A stretch of 59,799 nucleotides of DNA, the filler included. It is 7 parts of 7 records of this genome, joined end to end, with 100 filler letters (N's around TTAATTAATTAA, not from the genome) between each part and the next. Parts side by side here need not be neighbours in the genome. Positions count along the whole stretch, not along the records: positions 1 to 9,000 come from DRR723986_41054; 6 more parts are not named here. The stretch is one strand, 5' to 3'. Made by a program: the position numbers and the translations under genes. Below are positions 1-9,000 of the stretch, piece by piece. Position 1 is the first letter of the stretch. Each line of letters begins with the position of its first letter. The notes under the pieces were generated by a model that did no database searches, had not been told where the DNA came from, and saw only the letters and a program-made list of their open reading frames with translations.

Positions 1-105
1 AATCCATGTTAATCGGATTTAAGGTCTCGGGCCCCCGAACCTGAAAAATGGTCTGTCTGGATTAGAATGTTTCAATCCCTGTTAATCGGGATTTAAGTCC
101 GCCGC
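1..105 (-). CRISPR. Edge of a CRISPR array: one full ~37-nt repeat (69-105), one ~36-nt spacer (33-68) and a second, variant repeat truncated by the window start (1-32)
   Basis: Minus strand reads GCGGCGGACTTAAATCCCGATTAACAGGGATTGAAAC, then a spacer, then GCCCGAGACCTTAAATCCGATTAACATGGATT at the edge. Period is 73 nt. The first repeat ends in ATTGAAAC, and both have an internal AATCC(C)...(G)GGATT hairpin. Only two repeats are visible and no cas genes. Confidence 0.65.
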
Positions 106-1861
106 TAGAAATAGGCGTCTTCTTAATCACTCCAACAGACTCTAATCGCTTGATATTCCTGGGCTCACGCCACACCTTCATTCGCGTTTGCTTTTTATTT
201 TTGGTCTGCTGAACTTTATTGTCCGCTGAGTTAACAAGACCGCCTGGACCTCCGTCTAGCGCCAGTCCTGGTGCGGGTTTGCGCTCGAAGACGAAGTTGA
301 TTACACTGTTTCCAACCATGAGGTTATTCGGCGTGATTGAGTCACCTAGAAAAGCAGTAATTATCTGTCGCTTAATCTCGGAATTACTGCGTTTATACAG
401 TGCACCGATGTCTGCGAGTGTTGACAGACAGTCGATGTTTTCAACTGTTAGTGGCTTCGATTTCTGTTTAAGCTCATCAAGAGCCATCTCTGCCAGCTGC
501 CGCTCCTTTTCGAGCTTGCTACTAAACTGTCGATAATCCCCCGCTTCGAGATTGCCATCAAGATAGTCTGCTTTGACTCTCTCAATCTTCTTGATGATTA
601 TGCCCAGTGTCTTTTTCTGACTGTCTAACTTCTCCTGCGTACCCGTATCAATCTGATCGATGTGTTTCTGAATCAAGCTTTTGAATAGATCGAAGTTCTC
701 CTGCCTGAATGTTAAAGAATCAAACAAACTCGTCAGATCCTGTTCAATGTCCTGCATGCGATGATTGACTCGGCATTTCTTGCAAATCAAGTAGTGATAC
801 ACTTTTGGGCCACTGGCAAGCTTGTGATGTTTGCGCATGGGGTAAAGGTTGCGTCCGCAGGAGCAGCGCATGAGTCCCGTGACTGCAACGTCAGCTGCCA
901 ATTCGTCATCTTTAACCCGACTTGTTTTCTTGACAGTCCAGCGATTGTTTGCCTTCTGCCATCCTTTCTTTGAAACAATTGCCGAATGTTTTGCATCGGC
1001 AACTCTGGGAGCATCTGTGCGTGTGTCCAGACGCATCTTGCCCATGTACACTTCGTTCTTAATAATTCGTTCCATCTTCACCGGAAGATTCTCAGTGTCA
1101 TAGTGTTCTTCCAGAATCCGGCGTCTAATCGCTTGCAGGCTGAGGTTGGTCGTTTGTGCCAGTTCGAATATGCGTTTGACTGTCTTGGCCCGCGTCGGGT
1201 GTAGCTCCAGTACAGAATAACCATCTTGCTGAATGTAGCGATAACCGTATGGCGGTTTGCCGTGTACATAACCAAGGGACGTTTTCTTCTTAACACCCGC
1301 TCGCACACTCTCACCGCGCTTCATATTTTCATTCTGAGCCATTAGTGCCAAAATGCTGCGAGGTAGAAAGTCCGATGAGTACGGCGAATATGTGTCGCAG
1401 GTGACAACCGCGATACCAGCCTGTGCGAGTCGATCAGATGCGTATGAACTTTCGGAAAAGACTCGGCTGAGACGATCTGAAGTAATTGCGACAATTGCCT
1501 CTACTTCCGGATGCGTTTTGAGATATTCAAGCAGCTGCAACCAGGCAGGACGGTTCATACTTTTGGCACTGCAGTGGTCTTCGAAAGTCGGGCCAACCCA
1601 CTCAAAACTGTTGCGTATCCCAAACTCCGCAATAGTATCTCGCTGCGCCATGAGCGAAAAACGCTGCGCCTGGTCCTCGGTGCTGACGCGAATATACCTC
1701 AGTGCTTTTTTCACCCGCTTCGAATCCGCAATGTTCTTTTTCAGCAAGGGTGACGAATGGTACTTGCCATCTGATACTTCTGCGACCTGAACAAGCAGAT
1801 CGATTGCTTTCTCGCGTTCGCTTTTTTTGCTCTGCCTATTTCTGCGTGCTTTAGAACTCAT
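62..1861 (-). CDS. Large serine recombinase (resolvase catalytic domain, recombinase domain, zinc ribbon, coiled coil)
   Basis: Motifs YIRVSTEDQ (catalytic Ser), DRLSR, PPYGY and CSCG...CKKC, followed by a coiled coil. The ATG at 1861 sits next to the upstream stop (ORF track start is 1873). Confidence 0.92.
   Translation of the reverse strand: MSSKARRNRQSKKSEREKAIDLLVQVAEVSDGKYHSSPLLKKNIADSKRVKKALRYIRVSTEDQAQRFSLMAQRDTIAEFGIRNSFEWVGPTFEDHCSAKSMNRPAWLQLLEYLKTHPEVEAIVAITSDRLSRVFSESSYASDRLAQAGIAVVTCDTYSPYSSDFLPRSILALMAQNENMKRGESVRAGVKKKTSLGYVHGKPPYGYRYIQQDGYSVLELHPTRAKTVKRIFELAQTTNLSLQAIRRRILEEHYDTENLPVKMERIIKNEVYMGKMRLDTRTDAPRVADAKHSAIVSKKGWQKANNRWTVKKTSRVKDDELAADVAVTGLMRCSCGRNLYPMRKHHKLASGPKVYHYLICKKCRVNHRMQDIEQDLTSLFDSLTFRQENFDLFKSLIQKHIDQIDTGTQEKLDSQKKTLGIIIKKIERVKADYLDGNLEAGDYRQFSSKLEKERQLAEMALDELKQKSKPLTVENIDCLSTLADIGALYKRSNSEIKRQIITAFLGDSITPNNLMVGNSVINFVFERKPAPGLALDGGPGGLVNSADNKVQQTKNKKQTRMKVWREPRNIKRLESVGVIKKTPISSGGLKSRLTGIETF
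143..155 (-). promoter_or_regulatory. IHF-consensus site in the putative CRISPR leader
   Basis: Minus strand TATCAAGCGATTA fits WATCAANNNNTTR and lies about 40 nt upstream of the first repeat, a position known for IHF sites in some CRISPR leaders. Confidence 0.4.
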
Positions 1862-1862
1862 A

Positions 1863-2024
1863 CTATTTCTCACTGGTATGTTTGTGATCGTTCCGATTTA
1901 AGTTAACGATTAAGGTGGCGAAGAGTTTTGCTAACTCGCCAATGTTGTTTGCAAGTATTTGAGATTCCTCATCTGAAAGTTCAGGATGTTGCAGTTTTAC
2001 TGCAGATAATAGTTCTTTCTCCAT
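1863..2024 (-). CDS. Small helical protein translationally coupled to the recombinase (possible accessory or directionality factor)
   Basis: 53-aa ORF MEKELL...TSEK whose stop is 1 nt from the recombinase ATG. Function is inferred from position only. Confidence 0.5.
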   Translation of the reverse strand: MEKELLSAVKLQHPELSDEESQILANNIGELAKLFATLIVNLNRNDHKHTSEK

Positions 2025-2189
2025 TGCTACGCCTTCGAATATTTCGTGCGAAATGGAGGGGTCCAGTACAAAAGAAACGATAAAATTGATGAATATCAAC
2101 GGCAAAACGCGAAAGTGTTAACCGATGTTATGATTTTGGCACTCTGGGTATTGCATCGCGCTTGAATCGAGCCGTAAATTGCGTGAGCG

Positions 2190-3152
2190 GTGGCCCCCCA
2201 CCACACAATTTATGGATTTACGATAGTGAAAAATTTTAGCGCATTTGGTCCTGTTCATGCAGCACCAAAGTTTCTGTACAAGGTATGCGCAAAGCATAAC
2301 AAACTTGTTGACTTAAACGCAATTACTCTGCTGGCACGGCTTATGTACCTTTGCCTGGATGAAGAAGACGGAAGAGTGTTTTGCACGTATGCGTCGCTTG
2401 AGGAATCTCTTGGCTTAACGAAAAATCAGTCTCAATCGGCAGTCAAGCGATTGAAAGCACAGAATTTAATTACTACTGAACCCGCACAGAATGGACGATA
2501 TTATTTACCTAACATGCCGTTTCTGCGTCACTTGGCAGATCTGTGCAATGGTCAAAAACAAAGAGGTAAAGCTCCTCTAAAACAATTTGACACACCCGTG
2601 AAAACTATGTGGAAAGAGTGTGGAAAACTTAAATCGGGGGATGCTGTAGAGCACCGGGGGGATACGCTGGAACGTACTACACCCATAGGCTGCAACGTAC
2701 CTCAAAAAGCTCCTATTCCTTTTAAAGCAAATAAAAAAGAAAAAACAGACCCTTCTAGAGTGTTGGAAGAGTTTGGCATGGAGCGGTTGAATGATCCCGA
2801 TGAGGCTACAAAACTTTTGATGCGGTTTGCGAAAGAGTCCTGCTCGTTTTCACATTCACACTGGAAAAAGTTTTTCCGTGAAGCTCAAAACTGTCGGAAA
2901 GCCGACGGATTCCTGCTCACGGTCGAGTCCAGGCATGAGTGGATATACAACATCAACCCGATCTTGCTCAAAGAGGCAGTTACGTGCGTAATCGAAAAAA
3001 CCACGCATCCAACCGTCAACGAAATTGCTACTACCCTGCTTCGTGACCGGGCCATTCTGGAACAGCGGTGCAGGACACGTTTCACGCAGTATTTCAATTG
3101 GCGAAAGGCCTGGGAGTTAAACAACATTCCCACGATCGAGGAAATACAATGA
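2190..3152 (+). CDS. Helix-turn-helix protein resembling mobile-element/phage replication initiators
   Basis: N-terminal winged-HTH-like segment (CTYASLEESLGLTKNQSQSAVKRLKAQNLI), low-complexity linker, helical C-terminus; divergent from the recombinase. Confidence 0.5.
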   Translation: MAPHHTIYGFTIVKNFSAFGPVHAAPKFLYKVCAKHNKLVDLNAITLLARLMYLCLDEEDGRVFCTYASLEESLGLTKNQSQSAVKRLKAQNLITTEPAQNGRYYLPNMPFLRHLADLCNGQKQRGKAPLKQFDTPVKTMWKECGKLKSGDAVEHRGDTLERTTPIGCNVPQKAPIPFKANKKEKTDPSRVLEEFGMERLNDPDEATKLLMRFAKESCSFSHSHWKKFFREAQNCRKADGFLLTVESRHEWIYNINPILLKEAVTCVIEKTTHPTVNEIATTLLRDRAILEQRCRTRFTQYFNWRKAWELNNIPTIEEIQ

Positions 3153-3338
3153 AACTTCGATCTATTAACATCGTCAGATTGCAGCGCCTGTGCCGAAGCC
3201 CGTGCTTGCTTTTTGATTTTTTTGCTTAGTTGTTGAATGGGGAATGCTACAACACGAGAGTTGACGTTGAGCTGAACTGCAGTTGAATAGTGCAGACAAG
3301 AGGCTGCGGTGTTGAGTCATGCGAGCAACAAATAGCCA

Positions 3339-3626
3339 ATGAAAACATTGGAACTGTTTAACAGGCCTGAGCCTTACCTCCACAGTTTTGCGCATTGCCT
3401 GGAACCCAATTGGGAATTCACTCCGAGTCGTAGCCAACCTGCCGCACATGTATTTGCACGTATGACGAAGGCAGATGAAGAGCAAACCACGTTCTCGCAG
3501 GCAGCAATACACTCTCGTGCTTTGTACGGAAGTGAGCCAACGCTTAGAGTGCAGATTAAGGATGAACTGTATGGTCAGTTACAGCGTTACGCTGCGCAAT
3601 TCCTGAGTGTGATTCCAGCTCATTAG
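3339..3626 (+). CDS. Hypothetical protein
   Basis: 95-aa ATG ORF with no recognisable motif. Confidence 0.3.
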   Translation: MKTLELFNRPEPYLHSFAHCLEPNWEFTPSRSQPAAHVFARMTKADEEQTTFSQAAIHSRALYGSEPTLRVQIKDELYGQLQRYAAQFLSVIPAH

Positions 3627-3887
3627 TGTTTGAGATGTTCCGCTTACTTGAAGGTGATGAAGAAGTTATGCGCGTAGTTCTCCAATCTCGTCTGGCAAAA
3701 CAAGAGTATTTTTTCGATACAACGATCACTCTCACACGAATCAGCGAAATGTCTCACCTGAAAACTTTTAAGAAAGAATATAAGAGTTGAGTAATCGGTT
3801 CAGTGGCCTATTTGATTTGTGGACTAACGGTTGCAAAGATGCAAAAGCAAATAGAGCAGATTGCTGAGCTTACCTTTAAGCACGATA

Positions 3888-3915
3888 ATCGCACCTGAAG
3901 GCGGTTGTGTAAAGT
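3888..3915 (+). repeat. dif-like Xer site 1
   Basis: ATCGCACCTGA-AGGCGG-TTGTGTAAAGT, 11-6-11 architecture; 20/28 identical to site 2. Confidence 0.55.
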
Positions 3916-4105
3916 GAATTTTGGCTGTTCTGTTGTTTCACTTGATCAAAGGAATGTCACCGATACCCATTTTCCTGAATTTGCACGGAGTTGTGTCCCA
4001 CAATTGCTCAAAATACGTATTGACTACGTATTTCAATTTTTTCGAAGATTGAGTATCATACCAATAAACTCTTTTCACTGTTTCCCTTTTTTTGGAGAAA
4101 AGATA

Positions 4106-5035
4106 ATGTCCACACTAGCGACAGAAACCACATCAACGCCTGAATTGGATTTTGTATGGCTTGAACTCACAAATCGTTGTAATCTACACTGTGTACATTG
4201 TTATTCAGAATCGAGTCCCTATACAGGTGAACAGGACATATTGAAAGAGTCGGACTATATAAGATTGATGAAAGAAGTTCGTGCTCTTGGATGCGAGAAT
4301 ATTCAGTTTATCGGTGGTGAACCAACCTTAAATCGTAGTCTTCCTCGCCTGATTGAAGAAGCAGCTAATCTGAAATTCCCATTTATTGAAGTATTCACAA
4401 ATTTGCATCACTTAAGCGAAAACCTGCTCGGCACGTTTGTTAAGTATGATGTAGCAATTGCGACATCATTTTACTCCGATGATCCAGAAGTTCATGATGC
4501 AATAACGACCCATTCTGGTAGTTTTCATCGCACCGTCAAGAACATGCGCCGTGTACTTGCTGCAGGACTTCGCCTGAGAGCCGGAATAATTATGATGGAG
4601 CAAAATCAGGCTAGGTTTAATGAGACGTGGAAGTTTCTTGAAGAACTTGGCATTGAGAACATTGGAACAGATCACGTACGAGAATTTGGCCGAGCAAATG
4701 AGGCTTCGAGTTGTGGAATGGAAGAGCTTTGTGGAAGCTGTGCCGGCAACATCCTTTCAGTGGGGCCAGATGGAATAGTGGCACCATGTAACATGTCAAA
4801 ATCATGGTCTGTGGGATCTGTTCTCGAAAACAATCTCACGGATATTGTGAGATCCGAGAAGCTTACACAAACCAGGCACAAAATTGGTGAAAGTGTTAAA
4901 GAAAAGCTGAAGGAAGCCCCGCATGCGGTTTGCCCGCCGAAAACATGTGCACCTTACTCGTCTTGTTGCCCTTCAACTCAAAGTTGCAATCCATGTGCTC
5001 CAAACGGTTGTAATCCTTGCTATCCTAAAGGTTGA
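4106..5035 (+). CDS. Radical SAM/SPASM(twitch) protein with a C-terminal Cys/Pro-rich (C-x-P)x7 tail
   Basis: CNLHCVHC (CxxxCxxC), GGEP, and a SPASM/twitch-like CGSCAG...GPDGIVAPC...VGSV segment. GGAG RBS precedes the ATG at 4106. Tail: CPPKTCAPYSSCCPSTQSCNPCAPNGCNPCYPKG. Confidence 0.9.
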   Translation: MSTLATETTSTPELDFVWLELTNRCNLHCVHCYSESSPYTGEQDILKESDYIRLMKEVRALGCENIQFIGGEPTLNRSLPRLIEEAANLKFPFIEVFTNLHHLSENLLGTFVKYDVAIATSFYSDDPEVHDAITTHSGSFHRTVKNMRRVLAAGLRLRAGIIMMEQNQARFNETWKFLEELGIENIGTDHVREFGRANEASSCGMEELCGSCAGNILSVGPDGIVAPCNMSKSWSVGSVLENNLTDIVRSEKLTQTRHKIGESVKEKLKEAPHAVCPPKTCAPYSSCCPSTQSCNPCAPNGCNPCYPKG

Positions 5036-5091
5036 TCAATTAGCTGACTTTTTGAGAAACTGCATAATCACATTAGTGAGTTCTGAGAGTT

Positions 5092-6189
5092 TTGGGCAAT
5101 AACATTCTTCGTCTACTGCTTAGAGTCTACGGAATGACGTGCGTTGCGCTCGTTGTCATTCTTATTGCCCAAAACTGGTTTGTCATGTCGCCTGAAGAAT
5201 ACGCCCCAGCGGACCAATTGAGAGTTGAGTTTCATAATAGGCAGGTCATTGGCCAACTTGTTGCTGGCACCCTGGTTCTATTCGGTTTGTACCTCACTTG
5301 GCGCCGCATGTTGGCAATTGAACGAAGTTCAACAACTGCTGAACATTCGCAAATAACACAAAGTTTTAATGATGCCATAAGTCAATTAGGCAGCAAAAAA
5401 ACACAAGGAAGAATGGGAGGTTTGTATGCCCTTGAAAGAATCATGCATAATTCAGAAGGAGATATATCTGCGATCGCAGAAGTAATTTCAAGATTTGTTA
5501 GAATCCAATCACCATATAATAGACCGACCGAAGAAATAGGCACTCAGGTTGAAGAGCGTGAATCGGTCGATCGCAGATATGTTTCAGCTGCAAAACATTC
5601 TAAGCTTGGAGAGGATGTCAAATCCGCACTTAACATACTAGGCCGCAGACCCAACATAGAAAGCAAGCTGATCAGAATATTTTTGCATGAGGCTGACCTT
5701 AGTCATGCAGTGTGTTTAGAAGCCAATTTTGAAGAGGCTGAATTTTGGAGTTCGAATCTTCAGTTCGTGAACTTCTGGATGGCCAATCTAAGACAAGCGA
5801 GTTTTTGGTGCTCTAACCTGAGTGACGCACACTTAGTTGGAGGGAATTTTGCTGGTGCGGATTTTTGGGGAGCCAATTTGCGAAATTCAGAATTGACTTA
5901 TGCTAACCTATGGGCTGTTGACTTACGCGAAGCTAATTTGGAAGGTGTAAACTTTGAGGAAGCATTTCTGGCTATGGCGGATCTTATAGGTTCAAAGGGA
6001 GTTACAGTTGAGCAATTGCTTTCAGCAAACAGTCTCTACAAGGCAAAAATCGACTCCTCAACTAAGGAAACTCTATACAAAAAGAAGCCTAGGCTTTTCG
6101 AAAAACCAGCGCGTTTTGATGAAATACAAGGATTACACTATACCTATGCCACACGATTTGAATATCCATTCAACGGCAAAGCCACCTAA
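5092..6189 (+). CDS. Membrane-anchored pentapeptide-repeat protein
   Basis: Two N-terminal hydrophobic helices, the RMGGLYALERI segment typical of this family, and A(D/N)(L/F)xx repeats (ADLSH, ANFEE, ANLRQ, ANLRN, ANLEG). Confidence 0.85.
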   Translation: MGNNILRLLLRVYGMTCVALVVILIAQNWFVMSPEEYAPADQLRVEFHNRQVIGQLVAGTLVLFGLYLTWRRMLAIERSSTTAEHSQITQSFNDAISQLGSKKTQGRMGGLYALERIMHNSEGDISAIAEVISRFVRIQSPYNRPTEEIGTQVEERESVDRRYVSAAKHSKLGEDVKSALNILGRRPNIESKLIRIFLHEADLSHAVCLEANFEEAEFWSSNLQFVNFWMANLRQASFWCSNLSDAHLVGGNFAGADFWGANLRNSELTYANLWAVDLREANLEGVNFEEAFLAMADLIGSKGVTVEQLLSANSLYKAKIDSSTKETLYKKKPRLFEKPARFDEIQGLHYTYATRFEYPFNGKAT

Positions 6190-6206
6190 TGGAGGTTATG
6201 TAAAGC
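6179..6206 (+). repeat. dif-like Xer site 2 (its TAA is the pentapeptide gene's stop codon)
   Basis: AAGCCACCTAA-TGGAGG-TTATGTAAAGC; right arm resembles XerD arms (TTATGTTAAAT, TTATGTAAACT). Confidence 0.65.
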
Positions 6207-6478
6207 TGTATAATGATGCACTCCTCCGGCTACGGAATATTGTGTTCCTTTATGGGATTTAATCCATTTACCAAAAGTTGGCATTTTTCGCAGCTACCCG
6301 GTCATTACCCCTTCAATGATTGACAAGGGGCATTTCAGGCCAAAACCTACGCTTAGAAGTACAGTGACTTCACCAAACCGTAGGTTTTCGTTTAGATGCC
6401 TCCGCTGGTCGATACTGTTCGTCCGCATACGGCGATCAGGTATTTCCCGCCGTATGTTATGGGCTGGTTTCCTTCGTG

Positions 6479-7855
6479 TCACTTTACTTTCACGATTATA
6501 CTGCGATGCAATACTTGCCCTTTGTCTCCCGTGAGTGTTATAATGTAAACACCTGCAGGTTGTTCACTGATGTCAAGTGTGCTTACGTTTTTCTTGTAGA
6601 CAACAATTTGTCCTCTTACGTTTGTGAGTTGCACGTTTGATTGAACAGAAAAATTTATTGTGCTGTTAGTTGGGTTGGGGTAAACCAAGATGATGTTACT
6701 TTCATTAATTACTGACAAAGGAGAACACAACGAACTTAAACCTGCCGTCAGAACAGGGCTGTTTCTTTGAATGGTTGTTCCATCTCCTAATTCCCCGTAG
6801 TTGTTCCACCCACATGCCCATAGAGTGCCGTCATTTTTTAGAAAGAGTGAATACCATCCACCAGCAGCAATCAAGGCAATATCTGCAAGAGAACCTAACT
6901 GTACTGGAGAGGATTGACTAATAGTTGTTCCTATACCCAATTCTCCAGATCTATTTCGTCCACAAACCCAAACAGTGCTATCACTTTTCAAAAATACAGC
7001 ATGGCTCCAACCTGTAGCAATAGCGGTGACTCCTGTAAGAGAATTAACCTGTACGGGGATTGAAAAATTGGTAGTTGAGCCATTGCCCAACTGTCCGTAA
7101 TCATTTTTTCCACATGCCCAAACAGTGCTATCATTCTTAAGAAAAAGAGAAAACCATCCACCGCCCGCAGCAATAGAGGTGATTCCCGTGAGAGAGATTA
7201 CCTGAACAGGAGAAGATTGACTGGTTGTTGAACCATCCCCTAATTGACCATCTCCATTATTTCCACAAGCCCAAGCAGTACCATCACTTTTCAGGAATAG
7301 AGAATGAGCATATCCTGCCGCAATAGCGGAGATATCTGTGAGTAAATTTACCTTGACAGGAATGGGTTGACTTGTAGTTGTTCCATTCCCTAACTCTCCT
7401 GAGCTGTTGTTTCCACAAGCCCAAACGGTACCATCATTTTTCAGAAAAAGAGAGTGATATTCTCCTGCTGAAATGGCAATAATGTTTGTAAGAGAGCTTA
7501 TCTGTACAGGCATAGCTATACTTGTACCTACACTATTTCCTGATTGCCCATACTGATTACTTCCACAAGCCCAAACTGTGCCATCATATTTAAGAAAGAG
7601 TGAATGGTCTCTTCCTCCTGCAACGGAAATGATACCTTTAAGAGAATTTACCTGAACGGGCATGTTTTGTTGAGTGAATGTTCCATTTCCCACTTGACCA
7701 TAATGGTTGTATCCCCAAGCTATTACTGTACTGTCACCGCAAATAAAGAAAGAGTGAGCATCTCCACAGATAACTGATTGTGCAATTGTAATATTGTTCA
7801 ATCCAATCAATGCAAATATTGCTATTGAAATTGATACTTTTATGTGCTTTATCAT
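6479..7855 (-). CDS. Secreted RCC1-repeat beta-propeller protein with a T9SS C-terminal sorting domain
   Basis: Signal peptide, about seven HSLFLKxDGTVWACGxNxxGQLGxG repeats, and a C-terminal VYPNPT...GVYII... Por-secretion tail. Confidence 0.92.
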   Translation of the reverse strand: MIKHIKVSISIAIFALIGLNNITIAQSVICGDAHSFFICGDSTVIAWGYNHYGQVGNGTFTQQNMPVQVNSLKGIISVAGGRDHSLFLKYDGTVWACGSNQYGQSGNSVGTSIAMPVQISSLTNIIAISAGEYHSLFLKNDGTVWACGNNSSGELGNGTTTSQPIPVKVNLLTDISAIAAGYAHSLFLKSDGTAWACGNNGDGQLGDGSTTSQSSPVQVISLTGITSIAAGGGWFSLFLKNDSTVWACGKNDYGQLGNGSTTNFSIPVQVNSLTGVTAIATGWSHAVFLKSDSTVWVCGRNRSGELGIGTTISQSSPVQLGSLADIALIAAGGWYSLFLKNDGTLWACGWNNYGELGDGTTIQRNSPVLTAGLSSLCSPLSVINESNIILVYPNPTNSTINFSVQSNVQLTNVRGQIVVYKKNVSTLDISEQPAGVYIITLTGDKGQVLHRSIIVKVK

Positions 7856-8274
7856 TTTGATTTTCTTTTAAAGTTTTTTTAATCATAAGGCTTTAGGTGT
7901 CGCCCCGTTTTTGAAATGGTTGCTGGTCTCCATTTTTAGAAATGATAGTTTGTTGTCAGTCAGAAAAGACTGCCAGGATGTTTCAAAATGAAAAGTCGGC
8001 GGCTCTCTTGACTGCCGCTTTCCATTGTGCTGTGTCGTTTTAAACTTACCTATAACATTCGCATATCACGAATGACATTCATGTTATCCTTGCCTCTTAC
8101 ACAAGTTTTATTCAAGATGCTCTTAAAATATTGAGAGTAAAGTATATAAAACGGATTCAATAACCCAGTACGAACATCGCCTTACTTCAGGGTGTGATAA
8201 AAACGTTGATCTATTTGAATCACGTTTAAATCAGCACTTTTTAAAGTGTAAAAGTTTTTGTCGGGTACCGTGCG

Positions 8275-8302
8275 GGCGCACCTAATCAAATTTATCTAAA
8301 GT
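8275..8302 (+). repeat. dif-like Xer site 3
   Basis: GGCGCACCTAA-TCAAAT-TTATCTAAAGT. Confidence 0.6.
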
Positions 8303-8581
8303 AGCGCATGGGTATACCAGCAATACTTTCTGTGTCCTGCCTCAGCTTGGGATAATGAGCAAATCCAATTTATAGAGTTTGACTTCCTTGATCTATATCC
8401 GAAGCTTGAAAAATGGGATAAAACATCAAGAGACGATTTAGAAAATATCATAAAGACAATAGACGACGCTTTCGAAGAAGGAGAAAAAGATGCTAATGAT
8501 TGATCCCAAGTCGAATCGTTATTAAGTGAGTATTCTAGCAGATCTGGCTCAGATCTGAAGTAAATTTTCGCGACTACTTTA

Positions 8582-8609
8582 AAGCCCTCTAATAAACCTT
8601 ATGTATAGT
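8582..8609 (+). repeat. dif-like Xer site 4
   Basis: AAGCCCTCTAA-TAAACC-TTATGTATAGT. Confidence 0.55.
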
Positions 8610-8668
8610 TGTAATCAGTCTTGTGGATACTATTCCATACTGATGAAGCTCTCGAACTTCACTCTAGA

Positions 8669-8810
8669 GTATGCCCAATCCCAGTGAAAATGACCGCCTA
8701 ATCCCATTGAACGTGACCGATTGCATTCTGTCAATGAGCGGTAGTTATTCAAAGATAGAAAATTAGTTTGTACACTTCACGATCGGTCATTTTCGTGAGA
8801 TGGGGCATAC
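8669..8810. mobile_element. 142-bp non-autonomous element (MITE-like) with IS21-like terminal inverted repeats
   Basis: Left end GTATGCCCAATCCCAGTGAAAATGACCG versus reverse complement of the right end GTATGCCCCATCTCACGAAAATGACCG. An internal second copy (ATCCCATTGAACGTGACCG) recalls the reiterated ends of IS21-family elements. No ORF. Confidence 0.55.
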
Positions 8811-8831
8811 CTAACCGATGTTGTGTGCAGG
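8804..8831 (+). repeat. Degenerate dif-like site 5, overlapping the MITE right end
   Basis: GGCATACCTAA-CCGATG-TTGTGTGCAGG. Confidence 0.3.
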
Positions 8832-8971
8832 AGTGGTCCTAATATCGCTGGTGGAGACTCTCAAAACAAGATGGCGGTGGTTTGTTCGACGTGTTCAGCG
8901 TGAAGCACATGAGTATAAATTGCGCGGTAGCCAATTGTAAACTGCAGTGCCAAAGCAATCGGCGAATTAGT

Positions 8972-9000
8972 TGCCCCATCTCACGAAAATGACCGCCTAA
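8972..9000 (+). mobile_element. Start of another copy of the IS21-like end, cut by the end of the piece
   Basis: 8972-8995 is the exact reverse complement of 8784-8807 and continues CCTAA as in the copy at 8669. Confidence 0.55.

Follow-up and report, generated by a model that had tools for sequence, protein, structure and literature searches.

A radical SAM enzyme family of mobile DNA with a C-x-P repeat tail, a candidate substrate fused to its own enzyme

We analyzed a gene for a radical S-adenosylmethionine (SAM) enzyme whose product ends in a tail of C-x-P units, located in a stretch of DNA of 59,799 nucleotides (59.8 kb; the entire stretch is termed the window below). To our knowledge, all characterised radical SAM enzymes that modify peptides or proteins act on a separately encoded substrate, usually via a leader and a RiPP recognition element (RRE; RiPP, peptide synthesized on the ribosome and modified after translation). 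The anaerobic sulfatase-maturing enzyme anSME is a radical SAM-SPASM enzyme that acts on proteins without an RRE and recognises a short motif starting with C/S-x-P, namely the sulfatase motif C/S-x-P/A-x-R. Repeated short Cys motifs paired with a radical SAM/SPASM maturase are reportedly found in the CXXX-repeat, ACGX-repeat and SCIFF systems of Haft; unlike the gene analyzed here, these systems have separate precursor genes. Fusions in which a modifying enzyme bears the core peptide at its own C-terminus are known from the borosin type (e.g., OphMA), but the borosin enzymes are SAM methyltransferases and not radical enzymes. Neither the borosin nor the Cys-repeat systems contributed an NCBIfam model that reached its cut-off among the matches listed for the window protein (the best 25 of 72, as in all NCBIfam comparisons below).

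The sactisynthase of the sporulation killing factor, SkfB (PDB 6EFN), forms a Cys thioether within a peptide; it is both the best PDB sequence match and the best fold match of the window protein. The two proteins share a radical SAM barrel and a twitch domain with one auxiliary cluster, and the auxiliary site in the SkfB crystal has an open coordination position (PMC6231123). On the other hand, the leader-binding N-terminal domain of ~110 residues that precedes the SkfB core has no counterpart in the window protein, and SkfB has a separate precursor, SkfA, whereas the window enzyme has the fused C-x-P tail. The cluster ligands differ as well, being CX33CXC with two Cys after the helix in SkfB (PMC6231123) but two Cys before the hairpin and one after it here. 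CrpC of Methanococcus voltae installs thioether (ranthionine) crosslinks on the repeated Cys motifs of CrpA (PMC13692751, 2026). There the target is also the C-terminal part of a whole protein, and one of the modified motifs starts with C-P (CPLV), but the enzyme and the substrate are encoded by separate genes, the motif is C-x-x-Q/D in 17-residue repeats and the system is archaeal (PMC13692751). The GTP 3',8-cyclase MoaA is among the top NCBIfam matches (67 bits) and has a three-Cys twitch cluster. Its cut-off of 284 bits is, however, far above the score, and MoaA lacks a Cys-Pro tail and acts on GTP as a housekeeping enzyme, whereas the window gene is sporadic and mobile.

By analogy, the closest counterparts of the window enzyme in mode of action would be the sacti-/ranthipeptide synthases and CrpC, the novelty lying in the fusion of the Cys-repeat target to the enzyme. 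We tentatively favor a reading in which the enzyme modifies the Cys of the tail, a tethered substrate, by thioether-type chemistry, although our confidence in it stops somewhat short of calling it probable.

Architecture of the protein and its auxiliary cluster site

The features of the gene and its product are as follows.

4106..5035, + strand: gene for the radical SAM/twitch enzyme with the C-x-P repeat tail; open frame of 309 codons, with homologues aligning from the ATG
5033-5035, + strand: stop codon of this gene, the coding part being 4106-5032
4094..4097, + strand: ribosome-binding site GGAG, 8 nucleotides 5' of the ATG, read directly from the sequence
4163..4636, + strand: radical SAM core, residues 20-177; PF04055, 72 bits; AlphaFold2 (AF2) predicted local distance difference test score (pLDDT) >90
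4178-4201, + strand: CX3CX2C motif (C25/C29/C32) inside the radical SAM core
4730..4789, + strand: first half of the twitch/SPASM domain, C209-x2-C212-x15-C228, beta-hairpin; PF13186 and invariant columns
4856..4912, + strand: post-hairpin helix, residues 251-269 (alpha2' of the twitch domain); AF2 secondary structure
Residues 270-275, + strand: linker after helix 251-269; columns variable in the subfamily alignment
4931..5032, + strand: C-x-P tail, residues 276-309; from the translation; predicted disordered

A longer, TTG-initiated frame is possible from position 3905; the homologue alignments start at the ATG at 4106. The PF04055 score of the core compares with a cut-off of 29.5 bits and, together with CX3CX2C, places the protein in the radical SAM superfamily. 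PF13186 (SPASM) matched at 32.6 bits (cut-off 21.5), with residues 212-276 corresponding to profile positions 3-63 of 67. No Pfam domain was found before residue 20 in a Pfam scan of the 309-amino-acid protein, the first strand in the AF2 model comprises residues 16-20 with the core beginning at about residue 15, and the alignment to SkfB starts at SkfB residue 113. By these three lines (Pfam, alignment start and AF2), the protein lacks the N-terminal, PqqD-like RRE of maturases. Judged from its sequence, the protein is genuinely of the radical SAM type and carries a twitch-like module.

Across the alignment of 148 sequences, no Cys is invariant other than C25, C29 and C32 of the SAM cluster and C209, C212 and C228. 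The second trio gives the pattern CX2CX15C around the beta-hairpin of the twitch/SPASM domain, and C212-x15-C228 with G223-x4-C228 agrees with the first-half SPASM motif CX9-15GX4C. The canonical second half of SPASM is CX2CX5CX3C plus a final Cys after the helix. Since no Cys after C228 is invariant in the 148 sequences, this second half is missing family-wide, and the SPASM/twitch-like domain assigned by the first-pass annotation thus stands for its first half and not for the canonical second one. A local remnant of the latter may conceivably persist in the subfamily to which the window protein belongs, given the fixed CX2CX4CX2C block described below.

In a HMMER alignment, C209/C212/C228 fall on the CX2CX13C stretch of MoaA (the stretch alone is not significant). 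The pattern suggests a possible three-Cys, MoaA-like twitch auxiliary site. The twitch cluster of MoaA is held by three Cys (CX2CX13C), leaving one iron free for the substrate, and the open site of the auxiliary cluster I (Aux I) in the sactisynthase CteB is taken by a substrate Cys (PMC6231123). In SkfB and BtrN, cluster ligands are supplied by Cys after helix alpha2' (PMC6231123). As the sequence after alpha2' is here the C-x-P tail, a tail Cys is the natural candidate for the fourth ligand, whether permanent or transient. The start of the tail coincides with the canonical position of the post-helix ligands, and thus at least the first tail Cys may be a cluster ligand.

The AF2 model built with 148 sequences had a mean pLDDT of 88.8, with the core blocks at 95-99 and helix 251-269 predicted confidently, whereas residues 271-309 had a pLDDT of ~49 and no secondary structure. 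When only the 37 subfamily sequences were supplied, in which the tail is gap-free, the pLDDT of the tail was 34-48. The models show a tail that has no autonomous fold and is predicted disordered. A complex prediction of the core (1-270) against the tail (271-309) with two 4Fe-4S clusters and SAM, in which alignments were unused, returned a score of 0.02 and a mark of 0.34.

In a Foldseek search against PDB, SkfB was at the top (TMq 0.71), followed by SuiB, BlsE, anSME with bound peptides, CteB, PqqE and MoaA; the nucleoside-modifying BlsE ranked fifth. The profile match to SkfB in PDB (E 1.2e-30) was far ahead of the next one (1.4e-15). The closest solved relatives thus appear to be mostly peptide- or protein-modifying radical SAM enzymes. 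None of the NCBIfam models reached its cut-off among the matches listed, the best attaining 67 bits against cut-offs of 284-650. Among the models of sactipeptide and ranthipeptide maturases, the window protein stayed below the cut-offs of SkfB (63.4 vs 300), StsB (66.8 vs 625), AlbA (59.4 vs 850) and WgkB (67.1 vs 650).

The C-x-P tail across the family

The tail of the window protein, CPP-KT-CAP-YSS-CCP-STQS-CNP-CAP-NG-CNP-CYP-KG, comprises 34 residues with 8 Cys and seven C-x-P units, exactly as the first-pass annotation had read it (translation of 4931-5032). In a six-frame scan of the window, no other 40-amino-acid stretch had more than three C-x-P units (seven in the tail; runner-up, three). 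Tandem Repeats Finder reported no repeat in positions 3800-6300, and the window tail is therefore not a recent DNA-level repeat.

A word-indexed search retrieved 665 homologues at E<=1e-3, the best 120 of which cover 94-100% of the query, and among 1.84 billion representatives searched exhaustively with HMMER, 545 clusters at 50% identity reached E<=1e-30. We defined the tail as everything after the conserved hairpin Cys and took a census of Cys contexts in a redundant set of 261 sequences with at least 45 such residues. A less redundant set, made up of the window protein and 50%-identity representatives, contained 142 usable tails. The tails of the latter set have 988 C-x-P units altogether, whereas 200 shuffles that preserved the composition gave 228 +/- 12 and at most 260, and at least three units were found in 134 of the 142 representatives (range 0-62). 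They are rich in Pro (22.6%) and Cys (15.8%), while hydrophobic residues amount to 14% versus 37% in the core. In the census of 261 sequences, 1805 of the 1917 Cys after the hairpin (94%) sit in C-x-P, and the gaps between successive units range from 3 to 49 residues. The residue between C and P is unconstrained (S, G, N, A, T and others), and the position after Pro is occupied by N (17%), C (12%), D (11%), K (10%) and S (10%). In the tails collected, C-x-P is the only feature common to the family.

Clean tandem repeats of 9-20 amino acids with one C-x-P each constitute the tails of several members (P0233, P0238, P0258, P0261 and P0158). The largest number of units, 62, was found in a protein of 685 amino acids (P0268), the tail of which reaches ~400 amino acids. 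A search for longer fused forms found only P0271 (661 amino acids) and P0272 (650 amino acids), both of them this enzyme with its C-x-P tail extended to ~350-380 residues and without new domains; the tail of P0271 is built of a regular unit of ~12-14 residues with one C-x-P per unit. The number and spacing of the units and the length of the tail are thus free while C-x-P is kept, unlike fixed cluster ligands. This variation, in sequence as well as in repeat number and spacing, is in line with the first-pass annotation, which had taken the tail for the enzyme's own candidate substrate.

We collected 44 loci of the family, namely 3 genome contigs, 4 further genome loci, 19 metagenome contigs, 3 plasmid records, 14 IMG/VR contigs and the window; a single-protein search of genome contigs had yielded 3 true relatives among 80 loci. 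C-x-P tails are present in 42 of the 44, the exceptions being L107 and L108. Some tails carry additional features. In L087 (1396-2604, + strand), a hydrophobic segment resembling a transmembrane (TM) one follows the C-x-P units, and this tail may be membrane-anchored. Three IMG/VR loci (L176, L177 and L179) have a common extension of ~20 residues past the C-x-P units, ending in ...GTDC, and share a small downstream gene of 126-150 amino acids. A full-length member with 8 C-x-P units was found in a metagenome-assembled genome of Patescibacteria (L003); its presence in such a small genome (~0.8 Mb) fits a self-sufficient gene.

Several findings weigh against the tail as a substrate. It begins where twitch domains put their post-helix ligands, as with the two Cys after alpha2' in SkfB (PMC6231123). 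In the window subfamily (an alignment of 37 sequences, 48-72% identical overall), the 17 tail positions (of 34) that never vary comprise all 8 Cys as well as 7 Pro, among others, and 36 of the 37 rows show no indel in the tail. With 51 of 275 positions invariant in the rest of the protein, conservation in this subfamily is highest in the tail. The last four tail Cys form CX2CX4CX2C, resembling CX2CX5CX3C of SPASM, and the sister subfamilies retain CX2C-X4-7-C-X2-5-C, reminiscent of the second half of SPASM. A look-up of the tail alone in ESM Atlas gave weak leads (0.84-0.87) to C-terminal fragments of radical SAM/SPASM proteins; SPASM appeared at rank 9, and 25% of the top cluster had DUF3463. 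As AF2 lacks metals, the low pLDDT of the tail is compatible with metal-dependent folding. No acceptor residue is kept after Pro in the C-x-P units, leaving the thioether partner undefined, and 8 of the 142 representatives have fewer than three units. Among the latter, P0138 and P0168 have C-termini rich in Pro, Arg and Ser without Cys, which by eye resemble a frameshifted C-x-P-coding region; if these two are indeed frameshifted, some of the tail-less members are artefacts of sequencing or gene calling.

The split arrangement suggested by the first-pass annotation, a free C-x-P peptide beside a tail-less radical SAM enzyme, was not encountered either, whether in six frames of the 44 loci or in a search of small proteins. 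No second frame with at least five C-x-P units per 40 amino acids was found in six frames of the 44 loci (373 kb), and no C-x-P peptide was found downstream of the tail-less L107 and L108 in the three forward frames, the six-frame scan also covering them. The small-protein search detects near-identical words only, and found no protein of 30-168 amino acids sharing words with residues 262-309.

Many of these findings are what would be expected if the tail were a cluster- or metal-binding appendage of an enzyme acting on an unlinked cellular substrate. The first tail Cys would then complete the twitch cluster, and the rest would hold a second cluster, like auxiliary cluster II of SPASM, or further Fe-S clusters, or soft metals in the manner of metallothionein. 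The invariant Cys framework of the subfamily, with its SPASM-like block and the related blocks of the sister subfamilies, favors this alternative, and so do the ESM Atlas leads and the Pfam SPASM match, which extends to profile position 63 of 67 at the first tail Cys. The tail is placed like the post-helix ligands of SkfB and BtrN (PMC6231123), and CrpA, a Cys-rich substrate of a radical SAM enzyme, is itself suspected to be a metal binder (PMC13692751). Nevertheless, so far as the alignment tells, a metal or cluster site and a defined core peptide would account equally well for the fixed framework; cores of orthologous RiPPs also show fixed frameworks, and the invariance within the subfamily therefore does not decide between the two. 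The first-pass annotation had regarded strict conservation of the Cys spacing as an argument against its own reading, and such conservation is indeed found in the 37 subfamily sequences but not family-wide.

Across the family, neither the number of Cys (0-62 C-x-P units) nor their spacing (3-49 residues) is conserved, contrary to what is expected of cluster or metal ligands. Of 142 tails, only 39 have a CxPC, i.e., CX2C, anywhere; of 135, 65 keep all their Cys at least 5 residues apart, and 14 keep them at least 7 apart. Tails of 400 amino acids with 62 units and tandem repeats of 18 amino acids with a single Cys are not cluster sites, and 94% of the tail Cys are followed by x-Pro. We know of no Fe-S or metallothionein signature of the form C-x-P. 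The tail has no predicted structure, and no conserved neighbouring gene points to another substrate. We consider the ligand alternative unlikely on balance, though it carries real weight.

The C-x-P unit is also the first half of the sulfatase motif, and the tail may be a substrate oxidised in the way of anSME or BtrN rather than crosslinked. Hydrogen abstraction at C-beta of the C-x-P Cys would lead to a thioaldehyde and, by hydrolysis, to formylglycine (about -18 Da per unit), leaving a poly-aldehyde tail, e.g., for covalent attachment. BtrN, a single-cluster twitch enzyme that performs a two-electron oxidation of this kind, is among the PDB sequence matches, the anSME-peptide complexes 4k38 and 4k39 are among the structural neighbours (TMq 0.62-0.63), and such a reaction fits the lack of a conserved crosslink acceptor. 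On the other hand, the substrate of anSME is a separate sulfatase with Arg at +4, while Arg occupies +4 in 8% of the C-x-P units (261 sequences), and the match to anSME (5e-10) is much weaker than that to the thioether synthase SkfB (1.2e-30). The clusters of anSME and BtrN, of which anSME has two auxiliary ones, are fully ligated (PMC6231123), in contrast to the three-Cys site found here. We regard this alternative as rather improbable. Membership of the sulfatase maturases themselves was rejected on the basis of the rarity of Arg at +4, the absence of anSME models from the 25 best NCBIfam matches and the absence of sulfatase families from the 25 commonest Pfam families of the neighbouring genes.

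Neighbouring genes and mobile context

Positions 1-8000 of the window encode a serine recombinase, an open reading frame of 80 amino acids, a DnaD/replication-initiator-like protein, the radical SAM enzyme, a protein with TM segments and pentapeptide repeats, and an RCC1-repeat protein. The annotated features are as follows.

1..9000, no strand: low-GC island, with a guanine-plus-cytosine (GC) content of 0.37-0.48 versus 0.55-0.58 beyond it; its left end lies outside the window
62..1873, - strand: large serine recombinase/integrase; PF00239 and PF07508; XisF/CcrB-like below cut-off; phrog_95 integrase at 3.6e-58
2190..3152, + strand: winged helix-turn-helix (HTH)/DnaD-like, replication-initiator-like protein; weak matches only
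5092..6189, + strand: pentapeptide-repeat protein with two hydrophobic segments at its N-terminus; PF00805, 75.6 bits

The protein of 2190-3152 matched MarR_2 and DnaD_N below cut-off and phrog_270, phrog_678 and phrog_186 at E 7.5e-5 to 7.6e-4. The gap between the radical SAM gene and the pentapeptide-repeat gene is 54 nucleotides without a terminator-like site on the + strand, and the two are probably co-transcribed. Further downstream (6479-7855, - strand), a protein of 458 amino acids starts with a signal-like segment and contains numerous RCC1-type repeats. Its PHROGs matches are to phage 'regulator of chromosome condensation' and tail proteins, and its C-terminal segment resembles, by eye, a sorting domain of the type IX secretion system (T9SS).

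The first-pass annotation had noted no precursor, protease or transporter gene nearby, and we agree: none was seen in positions 1-8000, and neighbour clustering and Pfam detected no conserved partner gene (substrate, protease or transporter) in the 44 loci. In an all-against-all BLAST of 208 neighbours from these loci, the widest family was an XRE-type regulator found in 7 loci; clustering on 30 loci gave no cluster of more than two loci, and a Pfam tally of 63 neighbours reached a maximum of two (pentapeptide repeats in the window and L001; the AAA_21/AAA_15 ATPase also twice). The membrane pentapeptide protein, with which the gene had been said to travel as a mobile module, was rejected as a family-wide partner. 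It follows the enzyme gene in 2 of the 44 loci, the window and its closest accessible relative L001, and the two pentapeptide proteins have opposite architectures and cannot be aligned outside the repeats (BLASTP E 0.16). Of that claim, the mobile part holds; the partnership does not extend to the family but may exist within the subfamily.

No adjacent, separate precursor gene such as maturases have was found in the 44 loci (373 kb), which showed no conserved small neighbour. Because the cut-offs of the maturase models are missed and both an RRE and a separate precursor are lacking, the family is, judging from these comparisons, not part of any curated maturase family; nor is it anSME or viperin.

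Some neighbours recur in parts of the family. The HTH regulator of XRE type lies 2-4 genes upstream in L083, L112, L175, L179, L181, L184 and L186, actinobacterial loci; the label was judged from the annotation of L083 (Streptomyces), the one annotated locus. In L083, the regulator is accompanied by a DUF397 protein and an 'ATP-binding protein', a set that we take to resemble a WhiJ/BldB-like regulatory trio. A phosphotransferase-like gene lies directly downstream on the same strand in L082 (7870-8697), L102 (2925-3743) and L184 (6902-7807) and second downstream in L178 (5813-6637), recurring in 3-4 loci overall. An annotated protein-L-isoaspartate O-methyltransferase gene is directly downstream in L083 (7895-9025) and L187 (6894-8024). 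It is possible that the phosphotransferase-like and O-methyltransferase genes are subfamily-specific tailoring partners.

Homologues were found on 17 PLSDB plasmids, mostly of Streptomyces, and on 14 viral contigs of IMG/VR, and integrases or recombinases are nearby in L002, L082 and L083. No transfer RNA (tRNA) gene was found anywhere in the window, and the PHROGs matches of the radical SAM protein were generic radical SAM families only. Two phylum samples of 401 genomes each yielded matches in 8 (at E<=1e-35; 5 of the 8 with tails) and 4 genomes, respectively. The sources are Acidobacteriota, Actinomycetota, Pseudomonadota, Nitrospirota, Gemmatimonadota and Patescibacteria. Altogether, the genomic contexts identify the radical SAM gene as cargo of mobile DNA, i.e., plasmids, prophage-like contigs and recombinase islands.

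A mobile and sporadic gene of this kind, found on plasmid and IMG/VR records and beside recombinases, would also suit an enzyme that modifies a small molecule or a nucleic acid, e.g., in defence or counter-defence, and whose tail has no chemical role. The tail would then be a disordered Cys/Pro linker or an anchor for disulfide/redox sensing or for attachment to a membrane or a partner. The TM-like segment after the tail of L087 would agree with such a role, and viperin models match the radical SAM core at 35-56 bits. However, the matches to viperin and PADLOC models are confined to the generic core, and C-x-P is four times as frequent as in shuffles and is kept in 134 of 142 tails, which argues for a recognised motif rather than a spacer. 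The twitch domain and the nearest structures also point mostly to peptide or protein substrates, and we hold a tail without a chemical role to be distinctly improbable. Prokaryotic viperin as such was rejected, as residues 19-167 match pVip positions 4-149 of 257 (56.5 bits), which is the generic core only.

The tail as a candidate substrate of its own enzyme

We favor the tail as a tethered substrate because C-x-P is kept while the number, spacing and length vary, tandem expansions occur and the auxiliary site has three Cys. The lack of an RRE and of a partner gene, the predicted disorder and the peptide-modifying relatives argue in the same direction, and CrpC offers a precedent for crosslinked Cys repeats in a whole protein (PMC13692751). 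It is quite possible that the two roles are mixed, with the first tail Cys serving as a ligand and the remainder as the substrate.

We infer a modification of the tail, thioether chemistry and a role for the open iron site, which could be combined as follows. The C-x-P tail would be presented to the enzyme in cis or between copies, the tethering standing in for recognition through a leader and RRE. One tail thiolate at a time would bind to the open iron of the auxiliary [4Fe-4S] cluster, and the 5'-deoxyadenosyl radical generated at the SAM cluster would take a hydrogen within or beside the bound C-x-P unit, with Pro setting a local turn that presents the C-H bond. A C-S (thioether) bond would then form, at a cost of 2 Da per C-x-P unit (-2 Da). 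The product would be a protein, or a peptide released by unspecific proteolysis, with a rigidified, thiol-depleted Cys-Pro tail, which possibly serves a cargo function of the mobile element.

With greater reserve, we entertain a bolder and more specific proposal, namely that here, for the first time, a radical SAM enzyme serves as its own substrate, in a system that is leaderless and encoded by one gene. The C-x-P repeats would be threaded processively past the open-iron cluster with one modification per unit, either a thioether ring on the scale of three residues or a Cys-derived aldehyde, giving modified Cys-Pro polymers of up to 62 units in relatives. The gene would spread through at least six phyla as stand-alone cargo of plasmids, prophages and integrative islands.

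Should the tail instead be a variable metal or cluster site, the family would represent an unusual C-x-P metal-binding repeat on a radical enzyme of mobile DNA. The family is large (545 clusters) and has no curated model, and its single gene makes the substrate hypothesis directly testable. Full-text literature searches turned up neither an account of the family nor any fusion of a radical SAM enzyme with its substrate, in a library that omits most subscription journals, so that such reports may exist elsewhere. If this hypothesis of a fused substrate is true, joining the substrate to its enzyme in one chain would be a biosynthetic logic new to radical SAM chemistry, and the family would offer a compact, portable tag-and-modify module. 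It would also provide a natural single-gene system for the contact between an auxiliary cluster and a substrate thiolate, which has long been debated for sacti-/ranthipeptide synthases.

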